Origin: a virus
Lineage: Duplodnaviria > Heunggongvirae > Uroviricota > Caudoviricetes
DNA: 49,169 nucleotides
Direction: 5' to 3' (one strand)
IMG/VR virus record: IMGVR_UViG_2740892489_000001
The notes under the pieces were generated by a model. It had not been told where the DNA came from and searched no databases. It saw only the letters and a list, made by a program, of their open reading frames with translations. The position numbers were made by a program, and so were the translations under genes. This document shows, in pieces, positions 2,796-14,907 of the stretch (the stretch's first letter is position 1; each line of letters starts with the position of its first letter).

Positions 2796-5389
2796 TTGCA
2801 TATTCCTTAGCCCAGCGGGGCAGTGATAATGTCTTAATAGCTGGCCATTCATCGGTATTCAGGCAGTCAGACAGGGTTCGCAGATTGCGGTGATATTCCT
2901 GTTGACCTGCCAGTTTTGCTTCTTCGCCCATCATGAAAATTTCAACCGGATAACGTCCGCATTCAATAGTTGTGCTGGCAACCAGAAAAACGAAAGTTGG
3001 CTGCACTCCAAACTGTGCTTCATAACCGTCACTGTAGAATGCATCCTGAACGTGATAGCGGTAGTCGTAATAAGCGGTTTTGAATCGTTGAATATCCGCC
3101 GTAGTTTTCACGTCCATGATCCAGTGAAATTCAGGGATAATTTTGTCCGGACGGCACCGACACAAAATTCCTGTTTCAGGATCTTCCCAGTAAATTGATG
3201 ATTCAGCGTGTCCGGCGCTTTCAACAAGCCATTGCCCCAGCGGCAAAGCCATAACGCTTTGATACATGAGTTCAATTTTCCGGCCTTCTTCCGCAGTGAT
3301 AACCGTTTTTCCTGTGCTTGCGCATTCCATCAGAAACGCTTTCTCTTCTTCTTTTCCGGCGTTTGTACGGCGGTTAAATTCAGGTGCTACGATAAAGCGG
3401 TTACTGAATTCTTCCGGTTCAAGTACCCGGCAGTGGAAAGCAGTTCCTAAATCGAGCGTTTTTGTCTTTGTGGTGTCCACGGGGGCATTTTTACGCCACA
3501 AATATAGTGCCGGAGTATCAGCAATGTCATCGAGCTGAGACTTACTGATACCGGGACCCGCGTGGTAATTCTCATTCGAAATTCCGTAATAAATACCTGG
3601 CTCTATGTCTTCTACGATTACGGGATCTGCGACTTCGCCAGTTTCATCACTGCAATCGCGATGCGGATCGCTGCCAGCATTCTCATTGTGCGGATGTTCA
3701 GCGCCTTCCATTTCCTCCGGATCATTTTCCTTAGCTTCAACCTGACTCTCTTCATCGAATGTTTCCTGGTATGTTGCGTCGCCCATCACCGCACCACAGT
3801 CAGGGCAGTTATCCCCGCCAGTCTGGCCGCAGGCATTGCAGGCTATTTCCGGTTCCTGTTGCACTACTGGCTCAGGTTGATTCATATCTGGGCTGGTTTT
3901 TTCCGTTTCTGGCTGGTTCTGGTACACACAATCGCGAGTCTGGATCCCCTTTACCCATTTCGGATCGTTCGGGTCGCTAATTCCGTCAACAAATTCACCA
4001 CGTGATGCAGCAAGCAATTTATCGGCATCGACAGGATTTTTTGATGGAATGTTTTTCCGGGCTTCATGGAGTTCTGCCCGCAGTTCCTGATATTTCGCAT
4101 CAACAGAATTTACCTGTGACTGAGCATCCAGCGGCTGCGTGTCCTGATGATGTTCAGTTGCGTCCGGTTCCATTGTTTCAGCCTCTCCCTGTTCAACTGC
4201 CGTTGTTCCAGATGGTTGCGGTTTTTCTTCATCATCCTGTTTTCCTTCTTCTGTTACTCGCTGCGGCATCGGGGCAGAGGAGCGACCGCAGGCAATATCC
4301 ACGATTTCCGGATCAGGGTTGGCATGATCGGTTTCAGTCAGTACTTTGTTCAGATATTCAGTGACGTGCGCGGGGATGACCTCGATCCCAATTGGTGCTT
4401 CTTTTACGGACGCAACCACGATGGCGCGGGAATAATCCAGCCCGCCAGGCATGGTGATGAATTTGTCGCGGAAAACAGAAAAGGGCGGTTTATTTTCAGC
4501 GATAATTTCCTCAATGCGTTTAGCGTGTGCCGGATGAAGGTTATAGATGTCCAGATCCATTGAACGGGCCAGTACGCCAGTGGCTACGTCGCGCGCCAGT
4601 GACGTCAGATCGTGTACGAAACCTTCGCCGCGATCGGTGAGGTTTCCGCCGCCAGCATTAGCACCGGAAGCCGTGCGAGTGATGTGTGAAACACGATTAC
4701 CCTTCATCCACTCTTTTGTCAGCAGTCCTCGATCGGTGTAGTCAGCGTTCAGGTATGCTTCGAAAAAAGCAGTTATCAGTCCCAGGTTTGAATTACCAGG
4801 ATTAGGGAAAACTTTGTCAGTGTCACGAACCAGTTTGTGGAGTTCGCGAATTTCCAGCGGGTCGAGCAGGCTGGTTTTGTGGGAAACAGCCAGGGCAGTA
4901 ACAGCCGGTAGTTCTTCAGCCCGAGCAATGTGTAATGCCTGGAGTCCGTCGCGTGAAACGTGCGTTACCGGTTTTTCGCTGCCGTGTTGAGCAAGCCAAC
5001 GAATGGGCAGTTCCTGGCCAGAAATTGGGAGTAGCATATTCTCCTCAATCTCAGTCATGTCTTCGCCGTTGACGTTGGTATTGCCTTGATAGTGAGCGTT
5101 GTCTGGTGCTGCTCCCGGTTTTAGTTCCCATGTCATGGAGTCTTTGCTGAGTTGATAGCGTTCACTCCAGGTAAAATCGATCTCACCTTCAGCGGGCAGG
5201 TCATTAACGACAGGAAAATTCGTGGCAACAGCTTTAAAATAGCTGCTCAGTTTTTTACCTGACTTAACGATCAGGTAGTCCAGAGTGGCACAGGTCGATT
5301 CAAAATCGTTGCTTGCCCACAGGACGACGTCAGGTTCACCGGATGATTTTTTTCGCTTTCCGTAACAGGAAGAGTGGTTTTGTGCTCAT
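2788..5389 (-). CDS. recE: RecE exonuclease VIII; N-terminus displaced by frameshift at T7 run 5347-5353
   Basis: 782-aa ORF from [11 protein letters not shown] ending [13 protein letters not shown]; upstream 17-codon [14 protein letters not shown] fragment joins in frame if the run is one base shorter. Confidence 0.9.
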
Positions 5390-5490
5390 TGTTTTTTAAC
5401 CTCAACTCAGATTAAAATTCGTTTTGTTCAGTGAATGATCTTGCCGGATACACACTGTTCATAGCCTGCGCCATACGCAGGCTATTTCTT

Positions 5491-5767
5491 TCAGATTTCA
5501 CCTTTTAATTTCATTGCAATTAGAGTTGCCAGAAATTCGGCTTTTTTTTCTGCGGGCAGATTCTTTCCGATATGCACCAGGCACATTTTTTTTGACACCT
5601 TCATCAAGTGTTTTTACGTTGCCTGATGGACCATCGATATCAACCACAGTGAATGGGGTTTCTTTATTTTCTGTTTTAATTACGTAGCCAATGCGCTTTC
5701 CTTCCAGATTCACCTCGTGAACAATGTCATCGGTAGTTACAACAGTGGCTTCATAATTGGTAATCAT
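5491..5767 (-). CDS. racC: RacC-like protein; frame broken at T8 run 5586-5593
   Basis: MITNYEATVVTTDDIVHEVNLEGKRIGYVIK... N-terminus; expected C-terminus (MCLVHIGKNLPAEKK...) is in the adjacent frame. Confidence 0.6.
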
Positions 5768-5841
5768 GTTTTTCTCCTTAATTAAGGTTGAGCGAATACC
5801 TGCCATTTCTGGCATAAATTCAGTTTCGAATAGTCAATTAA

Positions 5842-5994
5842 TTAAAGTTCATGTGCCATCTGGTCTTTTTCGGCACAAGCTTCACTGCAATATTTTCTCG
5901 GTTCGTCTTTTGATAAAATCCCGTGCATGAAGTGAAGCATTCTTTCAATAGCTTTGCTTTCTTCAACGTCTTTTTTTGCAAAGGTGGTAAGCAC
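5842..5994 (-). CDS. YdaE-like small Cys-containing protein (GTG start assumed)
   Basis: Open frame ...ESKAIERMLHFMHGILSKDEPRKYCSEACAEKDQMAHEL between racC and kilR; start and frame uncertain. Confidence 0.3.
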   Translation of the reverse strand: MLTTFAKKDVEESKAIERMLHFMHGILSKDEPRKYCSEACAEKDQMAHEL

Positions 5995-6012
5995 ATTTTA
6001 TTTTCTTAGTCA

Positions 6013-6233
6013 TCACCATGACTCCGCCTTTACAGGTAAACCATCACGACCGAGGAAGACTTTAATCATGCGGTCAGTAATGCATGTTTTTGTGGTCAGG
6101 TTACGAATATATAGTTTTCGCTTTTTAATATTGTTTGCCGAGCAATATATGTCCGGCCTTCATGAAGAACATAATCGCCAGGAGTCACACACTGACGTGG
6201 TATTTCATCAGTTCCGAAGTGATGTGCAATCAT
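6013..6233 (-). CDS. kilR: KilR-like killing protein; frame appears broken near 6140
   Basis: [31 protein letters not shown] in one frame, ...[14 protein letters not shown] in the adjacent frame. Confidence 0.5.
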
Positions 6234-6675
6234 AATTATCTCCATTTTTACAAATGAACTTTGTTGATGCGGTGCCTGGTGCCTCCAGGTGACTGCAACC
6301 AGTTAACAATTACAGTCGGCTTTCCCACCCAAACCAATAAGGACTAACATGACTTTTAACTGTGCCACGTGCGCTTAGCCGCATTCACCGCATCACAAAA
6401 TTCACTTTAAAAAGGGCGGACATCAGCCGAACTTCAAGAAAAAAAACTGATGCCGCCAGGACTACACACAGCAATGTCGTTATTTACAACCGGAGGCGCA
6501 CTCCCACCATTTAAATTTAACAGACAAGACCGACTCTTTATGGATATCGGAAATGCGCCTTCGTGTTGTGCCCGGTTTTATTTCACCACCTCCGGGCTTC
6601 GGTGGTCTCGGCTATACCCCTACAGCGAGAGCTTGTGTTAACATTTCAATACCCTTACAGTTGAGAGTTATTGAT

Positions 6676-7164
6676 ATGTTGGATGTATTTACTCCATTGT
6701 TGAAACTTTTTGCTAACGAGCCACTCGAAAGACTTATGTATACGATTATCATTTTTGGTCTCACTCTCTGGCTGATACCGAAAGAGTTTACTGTCGCATT
6801 CAATGCTTATACTGAAATACCTTGGCTCTTTCAGATTATCGTTTTTGCCTTTTCTTTCGTGGTCGCCATTTCCTTCTCAAGATTGCGAGCACATATTCAA
6901 AAGCATTATTCATTACTACCAGAGCAACGAGTATTGCTTCGTTTATCTGAGAAAGAAATCGCTGTATTTAAAGATTTCCTTAAAACAGGAAATCTTATTA
7001 TCACTTCTCCTTGCCGTAACCCGGTTATGAAAAAATTAGAACGGAAGGGCATCATTCAACATCAGAGTGATAGCGCAAACTGTTCTTATTATCTCGTCAC
7101 CGAAAAATACTCCCATTTTATGAAGTTATTCTGGAACAGCAGGAGTAGACGTTTTAATCGTTAG
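6676..7164 (+). CDS. sieB: Superinfection exclusion protein B
   Basis: MLDVFTPLLKLFANEPLERLMYTIIIFGLTLWLIP..., hydrophobic N-terminus; ATG at 6676 inside the longer track ORF. Confidence 0.8.
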   Translation: MLDVFTPLLKLFANEPLERLMYTIIIFGLTLWLIPKEFTVAFNAYTEIPWLFQIIVFAFSFVVAISFSRLRAHIQKHYSLLPEQRVLLRLSEKEIAVFKDFLKTGNLIITSPCRNPVMKKLERKGIIQHQSDSANCSYYLVTEKYSHFMKLFWNSRSRRFNR

Positions 7165-7316
7165 CTTACTGTGTGCTTCTCCAACCATCGGCGCGCACCA
7201 GTTTCGGTTTTAAATGTTTTGCTTTTGGTATACGTCATGGCAGTGAACGTTCCATCCTGGTTGGGGAACACGCCGCACACCAGGGATTCGTTGTTGCCGA
7301 GGTCGATTTTTTGCAT
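7161..7316 (-). CDS. YdaF-like small protein (51 aa)
   Basis: Hand translation MQKIDLGNNESLVCGVFPNQDGTF...; below track length cut-off. Confidence 0.45.
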   Translation of the reverse strand: MQKIDLGNNESLVCGVFPNQDGTFTAMTYTKSKTFKTETGARRWLEKHTVS

Positions 7317-7326
7317 TTTGCGAATC

Positions 7327-7461
7327 TCACATCTTGTTGCTACGTATAGCGACTTCTGCCTGCCAGAGATCCCAGTCGTTGCTGCGTAAAGCCTGCACAG
7401 CCTGGTTGTAAGTGATACCGCAACAATCCATCAAATACTGAACTACTTCGTAATGCACCAT
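7327..7461 (-). CDS. YdaG-like small protein (44 aa)
   Basis: Hand translation MVHYEVVQYLMDCCGITYNQAVQALRSNDWDLWQAEVAIRSNKM. Confidence 0.45.
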   Translation of the reverse strand: MVHYEVVQYLMDCCGITYNQAVQALRSNDWDLWQAEVAIRSNKM

Positions 7462-7631
7462 CTTATCTATCCCCTTAACGCCGGGTGGCGGAACTAACTG
7501 CTGCACTGCAAAATTTGAATCCCGCCGTCATGTTCATACGCCTCGGGCTGGCTACTTAACCCCTGACCACTGCCTGGTAACTCGAAGTATTGCCCGGCGT
7601 TCTGTGGGGCGGGGTGGGTTGGTAGGTATAT

Positions 7632-7674
7632 AATGTACTTTGTGTTCATCATTGTAAAGTACTTTAAGTACATT
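7632..7674. promoter_or_regulatory. Left operator-like cluster of GTACT-core palindromic motifs
   Basis: AATGTACT, AAAGTACT and AAGTACATT within 43 bp downstream of racR; same motif recurs at 8195-8226. Confidence 0.35.
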
Positions 7675-7748
7675 TTATGTATAAAAAAATGAGACGGGAT
7701 AAAGTGAAGCACAAACCCGGAGGGGGACGCTACCGGATTTATGCTGGT

Positions 7749-8171
7749 TTAAGAGGCTTTTTTGTTTTTTTCTTTCGTGCTAACTCTTCGTAAATTGCAT
7801 TGTACTTCTGTTTTTTTCTCCTCAAGAGTTTTTAAAAGTTCATCTGTCTCACTGTCAGGGAGCTCGTCCAGAAGGTCAATGATGATTTTTTGTCTTGGAT
7901 TTAACTCCTGATAGAAACGTATCTGTCCACTTTCTTCTGTATCCTCTCCCAAAAGATAGGTTGGTGTTGTTCCAATGAGTGTTGCTAATTCCCTTAATTT
8001 CTCTCGGCGAGGAATTGTTTCACCATTAAACCATTTGCTAACCGCTTTTGGTGTTAATTTCATTCGACGGGCAATTTCTGCCTGCCTTCCATGTTGTTCA
8101 TAACCAGCGTTTTCACAGGCTAGCGCAAGCCTACTGGCGAACTCTTTACGCGCTTTATCTTCATGAACCAT
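7749..8171 (-). CDS. racR: Prophage repressor, XRE-type HTH (RacR-like)
   Basis: HTH-like segment AEIARRMKLTPKAVSKWFNGETIP; divergent from the Cro-like gene; C-terminus passes two A7 runs so the exact end is uncertain. Confidence 0.7.
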   Translation of the reverse strand: MVHEDKARKEFASRLALACENAGYEQHGRQAEIARRMKLTPKAVSKWFNGETIPRREKLRELATLIGTTPTYLLGEDTEESGQIRFYQELNPRQKIIIDLLDELPDSETDELLKTLEEKKTEVQCNLRRVSTKEKNKKAS

Positions 8172-8250
8172 AAGTTCAATGATATTCGCTCTTGAATGTA
8201 CTGTCAGTTCTGTTATAGCATGTACTCAAAGTTCACATTGTGAGGATGAT
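8172..8250. promoter_or_regulatory. Divergent promoter/operator region between repressor and Cro-like gene
   Basis: AATGTACT (8195-8202) and CATGTACT (8219-8226); possible -35 TTGAAT / -10 TATAGC for the rightward gene. Confidence 0.4.
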
Positions 8251-8505
8251 ATGAACCAGAAAACACTTGAAGATGTAATCAAAACTGTTCGCGTTTCTGT
8301 TGTGGCCGACGTTTGTGGTGTCAGCCAAAGAGCAATCTACAAATGGATGGATAACGGAAAATTGCCTCGCACAGAATATACCGGCGAAACAAATTACGCT
8401 GAAAAAATCGCTCATGCATCAAACGGATTATTTTCTGCCGATGCAATTTTAACTATTGGCAGAAATAAAACTACTACGAAAAAGCTGATGGGAGTTGATT
8501 CATGA
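8251..8505 (+). CDS. Cro/YdaS-like HTH protein
   Basis: MNQKTLEDVIKTVRVSVVADVCGVSQRAIYKWM HTH; GAGGA Shine-Dalgarno before ATG 8251. Confidence 0.6.
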   Translation: MNQKTLEDVIKTVRVSVVADVCGVSQRAIYKWMDNGKLPRTEYTGETNYAEKIAHASNGLFSADAILTIGRNKTTTKKLMGVDS

Positions 8506-8924
8506 AAATCAAGCATGAGCACATCGAATCAGTGTTGTTAGCCCTGGCAGCCGAAAAAGGGCAGGCGTGGGTCGCTAACGCAATTACTGAAGAATATCTG
8601 CACCAGGGGGGCGGCGAATTGCCCCTGGTACCAGGCAAGGACTGGAACAATCAGCAGAATATCTATCATCGTTGGTTGAAAGGTGAAACGAATGCGCAAA
8701 GGGAAAAAATTCAGAAACTGATCCCTGCGGTTCTGGCAATTCTTCCTCGCGAGCTGCGTCACCGACTCTGCATCTTCGATACCTTGGAACGCCGTGCATT
8801 ACTGGCGGCACAGGATGCACTGAGTACGGCAATTGATGCGCATGATGATGCAGTCCAGGCCGTTTACCGTAAAGCACATTTCAGCGGCGGCGGTTCTCCT
8901 AGCGATTCTGTCGTAGTGCATTGA
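8502..8924 (+). CDS. YdaT-like (CII-position) regulatory protein
   Basis: 140-aa ORF overlapping the upstream stop (ATGA); position as ydaT in Rac. Confidence 0.5.
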   Translation: MKIKHEHIESVLLALAAEKGQAWVANAITEEYLHQGGGELPLVPGKDWNNQQNIYHRWLKGETNAQREKIQKLIPAVLAILPRELRHRLCIFDTLERRALLAAQDALSTAIDAHDDAVQAVYRKAHFSGGGSPSDSVVVH

Positions 8925-9001
8925 TTGAAATTAATCGTACCGAACTGTTTTGTTCGGTATCAGTTAAATGTAACGCTGCGAGCGTTACAAGGTGAAAACA
9001 A

Positions 9002-9790
9002 ATGGCTTCAAACTGGATAAAGCTCGAAGTTATTACGCCGGATAAGCCGGAAATATTCAGGCTTGCTGAGATTCTGAATATTGATCCAGATGCCGCATTA
9101 GGGAAAGTCATTCGCTTCTGGGCATGGGCGGATCAACAAATGATAGACGGTAACGCAGAGTGTAACGCTCGAGGCGTTACAAAAAGTGCAATAGACCGTA
9201 TCACTTTTATGGCTGGTTTTGCTGATGCGTTAATTCAGGTTGGATGGCTGGTCGAAAGTGATGGAGTGCTTTCACTACCAAACTTTGAGCGTCATAACGG
9301 AAAAAGCTCGAAAAAACGGGCGGTTACAAACGAGAGAGTTACAAAAATACGCGAACTGAAGCGAAAAGGTAACGCTGCCAGCGTTACACAAACGGATCAA
9401 AAAGCGTTACCAGAGGAAGAGGAAGAGGAAGATATAAATACTGATCTCCCCCTAAATCCCCCTCGGCAAAAACGAGCGTCTAAACAATTCGAGCCGGAGG
9501 CCATTGCTCTGCCCGACTGGTTGCCAGAAACACTCTGGAATGAGTGGGTCCAGTTCAGGCAGGCATTGCGAAAACCGATTCGAACGGAGCAGGGCGCTAA
9601 CGGGGCGATACGGGAACTGGAAAAATTCCGCCAGCAGGGTTTTACCCCTGAGCAGGTGATTCGACACAGCATCGCCAATGAATACCAGGGCTTGTTCGCG
9701 CCGAAAAGTGTTCGGCCTGAGACGTTGCTCCGACAGGTTAACACTGTCTCGTTTCCGGACAGTGCGATCCCGCCAGGCTTCAGGGGGTAA
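9002..9790 (+). CDS. Replication initiation protein, O-like
   Basis: 262 aa with acidic linker EEEEEED; iteron-like repeats inside the coding region; followed by DnaC-like gene. Confidence 0.7.
   Translation: MASNWIKLEVITPDKPEIFRLAEILNIDPDAALGKVIRFWAWADQQMIDGNAECNARGVTKSAIDRITFMAGFADALIQVGWLVESDGVLSLPNFERHNGKSSKKRAVTNERVTKIRELKRKGNAASVTQTDQKALPEEEEEEDINTDLPLNPPRQKRASKQFEPEAIALPDWLPETLWNEWVQFRQALRKPIRTEQGANGAIRELEKFRQQGFTPEQVIRHSIANEYQGLFAPKSVRPETLLRQVNTVSFPDSAIPPGFRG
9149..9410. repeat. Iteron-like GTAACGC / GCGTTAC repeats (candidate ori)
   Basis: GTAACGC at 9150 and 9162, GCGTTAC at 9174 and 9404, palindrome GTAACGCTGCCAGCGTTAC at 9369-9387; similar palindrome at 8970-8988. Confidence 0.6.
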
Positions 9791-13924: not shown

Positions 13925-14907
13925 CTAAGTTTCTTATTTCTGGACGGTCATCTTCATTATAACTAATTACTACACTTTCTGCAGTTTCAATTTTTCGTCT
14001 TGGTGGTTTATGAATGCCATCTGCTTTTATAGTAAAGGATTCGCCTTCAATACCAGCATTTTTTGTTTGAGTTTTGAATGTGTTGAGAATTGGTGATTTT
14101 TCATCTAACGGCCCAAAAATGCTGGTCAATAACGGAGAAGCATCTTCAGGATTATATTCGAAATCAGCTCTGCTTAAAACTTCATATATTTTATTTACGC
14201 CGCTTTTTTGAATTGACTCTGGCAATAATTCTTTATGCCTTTTGAAGGTTATTTTCAGCGCATCAATAAGCTTATTGCAAAGTTCAATTTCAGAGTTGAC
14301 TCTTTTAACATTTAAGAAGCCTTTAAAATATCCTGAAATATTGGTTCTTTTACTCCTGTCTTTTACAATAACTTTCCCGCCTTTCCCACTTGGATCAAGT
14401 TGAATTAACGCTATTTTTTTGCATTGCCTCAGCTTTTTTTACGAAAGTTTCATGAAATCTTTCTAAAGTAGGCATTTGTTCTTCAGATAACTTTTCGTCA
14501 AGAACATAACGAACCACATCTTCATTATCGTATTTTATAATTGCATAGAATTTTTCCTTATCTGAAACCAATTCAAATAAGAAAAAGCATCCCATACTCG
14601 TGTTACCGCTAGAATGGTGTGACTGAAAATCACTGGCCAGTAGCTTCGATTGTTCTGTAAAACAATTAGCTTCAGCATCTGCTTTATCTCTAATGATACG
14701 CAGGATTCTTTCGGTATTTGAATTCTCCAGAAAAGTGAAAAGATTTCCTTTCAGTGAAGATTTGATACGTTCAAGAAAAAAATCCACATGCTGAACTGGT
14801 TTTATTTCTTTGAGAAGTGTCGGTGCTTCAAGATTCTTACCTACAACGTGAAAGATCATTTTATTAATGACTAAATTTTGTACGTCTTGTTCAGAAAGGA
14901 AACTCAT
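13848..14907 (-). CDS. NdpA/YejK-like (nucleoid-associated protein family) candidate; two track ORFs joined
   Basis: ORFs 14395..14907 and 13848..14225 fuse if T7 14414-14420 or 14434-14440 is one base shorter; motifs MIFHVV, GCFFLFELV...YAIIKYD, IQLDPSGKGGKVIVKDRSK recall the YejK family; GGAG before start. Confidence 0.45.

Follow-up and report, generated by a model that had tools for sequence, protein, structure and literature searches.

HK022-type operator sets predicted on an immunity cassette of a Rac-like Escherichia coli prophage

The closest described counterparts of the switch considered here are those of the lambdoid phages HK022 and HK75. The GenBank record of HK75 annotates oR1-oR3, oL1-oL3, OFR, pL and pR as "similar to bacteriophage HK022", and this annotation, together with PMC8053113, is the source of the HK022 operator knowledge used in this study. 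The annotated HK75 operators are of the type TG(A/T)AC-N5-GT(A/T)CA, and HK022 itself has the same sites. In PMC8053113, which cites Carlson and Little (1993), HK022 CI is described as binding cooperatively at adjacent operators and as looping OL to OR.

Three further systems offer points of comparison. In the Rac prophage of E. coli K-12, the footprinted motif of the RacR repressor is (T/A)TAGGC-N3-GCCTA(T/A) (PMC9638921). In prophage CP-933P of E. coli O157:H7, the PaaR2/YdaS/YdaT module has a lambda-like OR between the repressor gene and ydaS and, apart from it, an OL/PL set to which the repressor and the Cro analogue both bind; its repressor mRNA is leaderless (PMC8630535). Lastly, the repressors GfoR, GfhR and GtgR of the Salmonella Gifsy prophages are dimeric HTH proteins of ~136 aa that have no cleavage domain and stay uncleaved on induction; they are inactivated by LexA-controlled antirepressors and are functional though non-cleavable (PMC3121763).

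The DNA analysed in this study, a stretch of 49,169 nucleotides referred to as the window, reads as a Rac-like E. coli prophage in the region around the motifs. It carries there, in this order, recET, kilR, sieB, ydaF, a ydaG-like ORF and a repressor gene; rightward of the repressor lie a cro-like gene, ydaT (8502-8924), ydaU and ydaV. We consider it very probable, from the comparisons set out below, that repeated motifs on either side of the repressor gene are the operators of an HK022-immunity-type lambdoid switch carried on an 871-bp cassette. The kind of element is fully known, a textbook lambdoid switch; a literature search found no paper on this particular cassette. In E. coli genomes the repressor is annotated only as a "helix-turn-helix protein" or is mistaken for RacR, and the operators are unannotated.

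An earlier note on this DNA had drawn attention to repeated palindromes with a GTACT core. Its octamers are all present where it placed them, with AATGTACT at 7632-7639, AAAGTACT at 7656-7663 and AAGTACATT at 7666-7674 on one side of the repressor gene, and AATGTACT again at 8195-8202 and CATGTACT at 8219-8226 on the other. The unit is nonetheless a different one, as the octamers are half-sites of 17-bp pseudo-palindromes rather than separate palindromes. The 15-bp core of these sites, TG(A/T)AC-N5-GT(A/T)CA, is an imperfect palindrome, and each of the five sites deviates from it at 0-1 positions. They are given here without a strand. The leftward set consists of OL1 (7633..7649, centre 7641, ATGTACTTTGTGTTCAT) and OL2 (7657..7673, centre 7665, AAGTACTTTAAGTACAT), and the rightward set of OR3 (8163..8179, centre 8171, ATGAACCATAAGTTCAA), OR2 (8196..8212, centre 8204, ATGTACTGTCAGTTCTG) and OR1 (8220..8236, centre 8228, ATGTACTCAAAGTTCAC); OL1 and OR1 match the core exactly. 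From centre to centre, OL1 and OL2 are 24 bp apart, OR3 and OR2 33 bp, and OR2 and OR1 24 bp. The OL set lies downstream of the repressor gene, ~0.5 kb from OR. OR3, with the halves TGAAC/GTTCA, spans the repressor start codon (8171..8169) and was missing from the original list of repeats, which had located its five octamers correctly. Three right halves had escaped notice because they read GTTC instead of GTAC.

The sites are embedded in candidate promoters. A PL-like promoter on the minus strand (7630..7658) has TTTACA (7658..7653) and CATTAT (7635..7630) separated by a 17-bp spacer and scored 9/12 in a consensus scan. It faces the ydaG/ydaF/kilR/recET side and is the position-for-position equivalent of the annotated HK75 pL (TTTACA-17-CATCAT), and the scan picked it up independently. 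OL1 lies between the -35 and -10 of this promoter and overlaps the -10, and OL2 overlaps the -35. A PRM-like promoter, also on the minus strand (8179..8207), combines CTGACA (8207..8202), a 17-bp spacer and TATCAT (8184..8179), scoring 10/12. Its -10 ends 7 nt before the A of the repressor ATG, which predicts that the repressor mRNA would be leaderless; such cI-type mRNAs have been reported for lambda, paaR2 and K-12 racR (PMC8630535, PMC9638921). Both this -10 (TATGAT/TATCAT) and its distance to the ATG are kept across the family described below.

The PR-like promoter of the cro-like gene (8192..8221, plus strand) was missed by the consensus scan. We infer it from position-for-position alignment with the annotated HK75 pR, TTGACT-16-CATAAT, which places a -35 at TTGAAT (8192-8197) and a -10 at either TATAGC (8214-8219) or TAGCAT (8216-8221). 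Either version of the -10 is poor, and weaker than elsewhere in the family. OR2 falls between the -35 and -10 of the putative PR and at the same time over the -35 of PRM, and OR1 covers the predicted PR start. A terminator scan of 7300-8600 returned none, and an Rfam search of 5000-9500 placed no RNA family within or beside the operator regions. The sole Rfam matches in 5000-9500 were DicF-like and STnc100-like, near kilR.

Site by site, the operators align with those of HK75. OL1 corresponds to oL1 (ATGAACTTTAGGTACAT), OL2 to oL2 (ATGTACTACTGGTACTT), OR2 to oR2 (GGAACTGATAGTACA) and OR1 to oR1, while the 15-bp core of OR3 is identical at 15/15 positions to HK022/HK75 oR1 and oR3 (TGAACTTATGGTTCA, other strand). 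The OL region as a whole is 79% identical over 61 bp to HK75 oL1/oL2/pL. In HK022 and HK75, as in the window, OL1 and OL2 are 24 bp apart over a TTTACA-17-CATYAT promoter, and these two phages and Klebsiella phage 2b share with it the OR spacing of 24 + 33 bp and the location of OR3 on the repressor ATG. Across OR, the window, HK75 and phage 2b align with almost no gaps, the few being of a single base and left of OR1. The proteins agree with this picture, with homologous repressor N-terminal domains (39% identity to HK022/HK75 in the overall alignment) and a cro-like protein that shares 56% identity with the Cro proteins of HK75 and Klebsiella phage 2b. Encoded at the ydaS position (8251..8505, plus strand), this 84-aa protein was recognised by alignment and by a weak HTH_17 match, and it is expected to share its operators with the repressor.

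The resemblance has limits. In contrast to HK022/HK75, the window repressor is without an S24 peptidase/oligomerisation domain, and the PR -10 is the weaker one. HK022 and HK75 have an OFR at ~-330, whereas no equivalent of OL3 or OFR was found in the window, where no further site between 7400 and 9100 exceeds a weight-matrix score of 5.4. The flanking operons are also of the Rac type (ydaG/ydaF/kilR/recET on one side, ydaT as CII analogue on the other), as opposed to the nun/put/cII type of HK022. YdaT/CII was considered as the binder of the repeated motifs and rejected; the YdaT box, at 8495-8512, reads TTGATT-N6-AATCAA, unlike those motifs.

How far the arrangement extends was assessed with one genome per species, which yielded 28 loci encoding relatives of the repressor at 37-89% identity, in Shigella, Klebsiella, Kluyvera, Enterobacter, Brenneria, Pantoea, Providencia, Salmonella, Pseudomonas, Haemophilus and relatives. 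Most have three high-scoring sites, 24 and 33 bp apart, just upstream of the repressor gene; in a few, the number of sites is one or two, or a contig end interrupts the locus. Relative to the ATG, the sites stand at -57, -33 and 0 in the loci of Enterobacterales and Pseudomonas, and ~20 bp further upstream in those of Pasteurellaceae. The OR3 equivalent is at position 0 to the ATG in most loci, and in most of the others it lies 6-24 bp upstream of the start of the match. In at least 13 related loci there is also an OL pair with 24-bp spacing, 0.5-2.1 kb downstream and without exception at the far boundary of the immunity region. When 18 distinct OR regions are stacked without gaps, half-sites and promoter hexamers prove near-invariant, and the central and inter-operator spacers vary freely; this pattern of near-invariant half-sites and drifting spacers holds over the 28 species-level loci, two further Salmonella loci and HK022.

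Those two Salmonella loci encode short-form repressors that are 62-65% identical to that of the window, and they keep the same OR set. Both also have an OL pair, ~0.9 kb beyond the repressor stop and past an inserted HigB/HigA-like gene pair. This conservation indicates that the operator sets move together with the repressor and delimit the immunity region on both sides. One Salmonella gene model of a short homologue has an upstream in-frame AUG inside OR, which recalls GfhR* (PMC3121763). Within E. coli, a 1.3-kb query that holds the cassette (7300-8600) is covered to at least 80% in 1025 of 5426 complete genomes, with matches mostly at 95% identity or above. The record vB_EcoS-673R7 and related "phage" records were set aside as evidence of a viable phage, as they are in-silico prophages from clinical isolates.

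The repressor gene (7749..8171, minus strand) was characterised by Pfam, tblastn, alignment and an AlphaFold (AF2) model. Pfam detects an HTH_3 domain and no match to Peptidase_S24. In tblastn searches of phage genomes, residues 1 to ~102 are homologous to three CI groups, namely HK022 and HK75 CI (44-45% identity over 102 aa), Klebsiella phage 2b CI (63%) and the CI of 933W-type phages (51% over 73 aa). Between the N-terminal HTH domain and HK022-type CI proteins, identity amounts to 39-54% across the full alignment and 44-64% in local tblastn matches of ~100 aa; the recognition helix, TPKA(V/I)SKWFNGE, is conserved, with one V/I position varying. Judged by its sequence, the DNA-binding domain belongs to the HK022 CI family.

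Beyond that domain the proteins part ways. Similarity to the full-length 235-aa relatives, which carry PF00717, ends at IDLLD, just before their SAGPG cleavage region, and in place of the S24 C-terminal domain and the Ala-Gly cleavage site the window repressor has a ~40-aa two-helix tail. In lambda-type repressors, dimerisation, pairwise cooperativity and looping are all functions of the S24 C-terminal domain. The AlphaFold model, made with the database protein P0002, has a mean pLDDT of 80 and comprises a five-helix HTH domain (residues 3-74), a disordered linker (77-90) and C-terminal helices at 92-103 and 106-138. A PDB sequence search with the repressor returned only the P22 C2 N-terminal domain (E=0.006), and Foldseek against the PDB nothing beyond generic XRE-HTH proteins (E>1e-3), SinR and phage repressors among them; for the tail, Foldseek gave no confident structural match and the PDB sequence search no specific one. 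The tail is kept in the Salmonella short homologues, which points to a functional design and not a recent truncation. The window copy is 140 aa long, compared with 139 aa in every reference (WP_000233319, for example), and its tail is locally frameshifted by three homopolymer indels, with three extra A residues within 7760-7820; if real and not a sequencing artefact, this frameshift might impair the protein.

The alternative that survives best takes the HK022-type operators as real and supposes that the Cro-like protein is their main or sole user, the repressor being a crippled N-terminal fragment in a decaying cassette. The repressor does end where the CI C-terminal domain would start, the tail of this copy has the indels just mentioned, and isolated N-terminal domains of lambda CI bind weakly. 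Against this, the short form, tail included, is conserved in Salmonella prophages that have the same OR and OL sets, and the region is present in the many complete E. coli genomes counted above. Moreover, the model gives the tail two confidently predicted helices, the cassette keeps OR3 over the repressor ATG together with the conserved PRM -10, and the short non-cleavable lambdoid repressors of Gifsy are functional (PMC3121763). We regard a switch left to Cro as very improbable.

Comparison with K-12 Rac by blastn and alignment delimits the cassette. The window is 99.6% identical to K-12 Rac over 5001-7624 and 92% over 8496-8922, with no similarity between, so that an 871-bp immunity cassette (7625..8495, no strand assigned) containing OL, repressor, OR and cro replaces the K-12 racR-ydaS cassette. 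The left breakpoint lies approximately at the predicted PL start, and the right one coincides with the YdaT box over the ydaT ATG. The K-12 locus has five copies of the RacR motif in all. Three are in the racR-ydaS intergenic region, and the other two, 25 bp apart, lie just inside the left breakpoint over a leftward TTGACA-17-TATAGT promoter. At both positions, then, each repressor is matched by a motif of its own, the classical OL/OR signature of heteroimmune lambdoid phages, and a window-type prophage would be expected to be heteroimmune to K-12 Rac.

The two prophages otherwise have much in common, including the backbone and gene order, a short repressor without S24 and a repressor promoter that is leaderless, in the window by prediction (PMC9638921, PMC11879457), as well as three operators in the divergent intergenic region, one of them over the repressor ATG, and a YdaT box at the ydaT ATG. 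The gene order, which is that of K-12 Rac, and the location of the gene, at the position of racR, favour the earlier suggestion that the gene is racR and that the sites are operators of a RacR-type repressor, which would mean the same family and specificity as K-12 RacR. The sequences tell otherwise. With the 158-aa K-12 RacR, BLASTP aligns no more than 33 aa of the HTH, at 36% identity; neither the repressor nor the cro sequence is related to its K-12 counterpart, the DNA of the 871-bp cassette has no relation to that of K-12, and the operator motif differs from the footprinted TAGGC-N3-GCCTA (PMC9638921). RacR-type specificity consequently has a negligible probability in our estimate. What stands of the suggestion is its other half. 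Two sets do flank the repressor gene, by homology to HK022/HK75, and as predicted OL/OR-like operators they are supported by the cassette swap and by the family-wide footprint.

The sites stand out statistically as well. Taken over the whole window, the bare 7-mer ATGTACT shows no enrichment (5 copies, 3.8 expected; 32 of 100 shuffles reach 5), yet four of its five copies fall inside 594 bp, for which P ~3.5e-5 if points are placed uniformly. The full unit, TGWAC-N5-GTWCA with at most one mismatch, has 11 matches in the whole window against 4.35 expected, a number reached by 0 of 100 shuffles, and five of these 11 fall in two clusters that are the five operator sites. A symmetrised weight matrix (PWM) was built from six HK75-annotated operators only, with the window sequence excluded. 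It ranks the five sites 1-5 in the 49-kb window, in the order OR3 (score 19.9), OL2 (18.2), OR1 (16.3), OR2 (14.4) and OL1 (13.8). Dinucleotide-shuffled sequences contain a mean of 0.23 sites at the score of the fifth site, with a maximum of 2, and between 7400 and 9100 the weakest of the five is followed at a wide distance by the next best match, at 5.4. Extra PWM or core matches at 14333-14349 and 14879-14893 were dismissed as chance, being at the level of the best shuffle score and, in one case, within an ORF. That the motifs are a functionless chance cluster of short A+T-rich palindromes (GTAC, AGTACT) in A+T-rich intergenic DNA, as the unenriched 7-mer and the GC content of the cassette (39%, window 47%) might be taken to imply, is scarcely credible given the clustering, the top five ranks under an independent matrix and sites that are conserved base for base across genera while their spacers drift. 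The sites exist, far beyond chance, and are homologous in sequence, spacing and promoter context to the HK022/HK75 operators.

For the HK022-type switch on this cassette, inference extends to repressor binding and its cooperativity, to the sequence in which the sites are occupied, to where the promoters start and to any looping between OL and OR. Dimers of the repressor, and presumably also of the Cro-like protein, would recognise the 17-bp sites. OR1 and OR2 cover the rightward promoter of the cro/ydaT/replication operon, where bound repressor dimers would shut PR; OL1 and OL2 likewise cover the leftward promoter of the ydaG-ydaF-kilR-recET operon, where they would shut PL. OR3, placed on the start codon and predicted transcription start of the repressor gene, may provide negative autoregulation, and Cro would compete with the repressor for the same sites. 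With OL and OR both occupied, the prophage would be silent and confer superinfection immunity.

Other known switches resemble this one in part. CP-933P is alike in the layout of its OR and OL/PL sets and in its leaderless repressor mRNA (PMC8630535), a feature predicted for the window, and unlike in its operators, which are 18-bp palindromes based on GTTTAGTAA with four IRs, and in the toxin-antitoxin pair downstream of its repressor gene. With Gifsy the likeness lies in a short non-cleavable repressor (here 139/140 aa, no S24) in a recET-carrying lambdoid prophage; it is a likeness of type. A LexA box (CTGT-N8-ACAG) is absent from the window, a looser search gave nothing convincing and no obvious antirepressor was found in it; an antirepressor might be encoded beyond the window or work in trans.

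In combination, the HK022-specificity domain, the full cooperative geometry of the operators and the two-helix tail suggest a prophage that is homoimmune or cross-reacting with HK022, whose repressor is not cleavable through RecA and dimerises by a helical module. We put this forward tentatively, giving all of these properties together somewhat under an even chance. If true, a Rac-like prophage of this kind, homoimmune or cross-reacting with phage HK022 and its relatives, is present in about one fifth of complete E. coli genomes. Such a prophage would not be induced via RecA-mediated cleavage of its repressor, so an antirepressor or some other route would be needed. Dimerisation, and perhaps cooperativity or looping, would then depend on a small helical module.

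The analysis corrects the annotation of a very common region of E. coli prophages, and for HK022-type phages it means that prophages of the window type may be homoimmune with them. It also provides a natural comparison, in which the same operators are read by either a full-length cleavable CI or a short non-cleavable repressor, and which could help to define the part played by the C-terminal domain in cooperativity and looping.

The short form of the repressor, encoded at 7749-8171 (minus strand) in the window and at 3001-3456 and 3001-3417 in two Salmonella loci (L035 and L037, respectively), consists of an HK022-type N-terminal domain and a conserved two-helix tail, without an S24 domain. 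It was found in E. coli, Shigella and Salmonella only, while nearly all other relatives carry 235-aa S24 CI proteins. In one Salmonella gene model, the repressor reading frame begins further upstream, at an in-frame AUG within OR (the set of three operators between the repressor and cro-like genes), which recalls the GfhR* form described for Gifsy-3 (PMC3121763).

The 3′ part of the window repressor gene (7760-7820, minus strand) contains three additional A residues in homopolymer runs relative to all E. coli, Shigella and prophage references; one run is A7 as opposed to A6 in the references, and two other runs are also affected. Together, they place approximately 17 codons of the repressor tail out of frame, after which the frame is regained. 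Since the reference frame is the one that fits the conserved Salmonella tail, the three extra residues probably reflect either a homopolymer sequencing artefact or a mutation that arose very recently.

The right breakpoint of the immunity cassette falls at a perfect YdaT box (TTGATT-N6-AATCAA, 8495-8512) lying across the ydaT start codon (8502), the same position that the box occupies in K-12 Rac and CP-933P (PMC11879457, PMC9986795). Two further operator-like matches, CTGAAATATTGGTTCTT (14333-14349, intergenic, PWM score 13.1) and TGTACGTCTTGTTCA (14879-14893, an exact core match inside the minus-strand ORF 14395-14907), scored no better than the top shuffles and are therefore probably due to chance.

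On the leftward side, sub-threshold Rfam matches to DicF (6414-6470, minus strand; 39 bits against a gathering score of 48) and STnc100 (6226-6412, minus strand; 35.5 bits against 47) lie upstream of kilR, where K-12 has the annotated kilS sRNA. A ydaG-like ORF of 59 aa with a GTG start (7327-7506, minus strand) has a Pfam match to the UBA-like UBA_4 (E = 7e-5), barely over the gathering score.

The RacR literature cited is confined to the racR-ydaS intergenic region. Downstream of racR in the K-12 Rac locus (L002), two RacR-type TAGGC-N3-GCCTA sites (3131-3143 and 3156-3168, spaced 25 bp apart) overlap a strong leftward promoter (TTGACA-17-TATAGT) and have the appearance of an OL/PL set. In the Salmonella relatives, a gene pair resembling a HigB toxin and HTH antitoxin (L035 3588-4255; L037 3553-4220) lies between the repressor gene and OL; in this slot lambda carries rexAB, and CP-933P carries paaA2-parE2.
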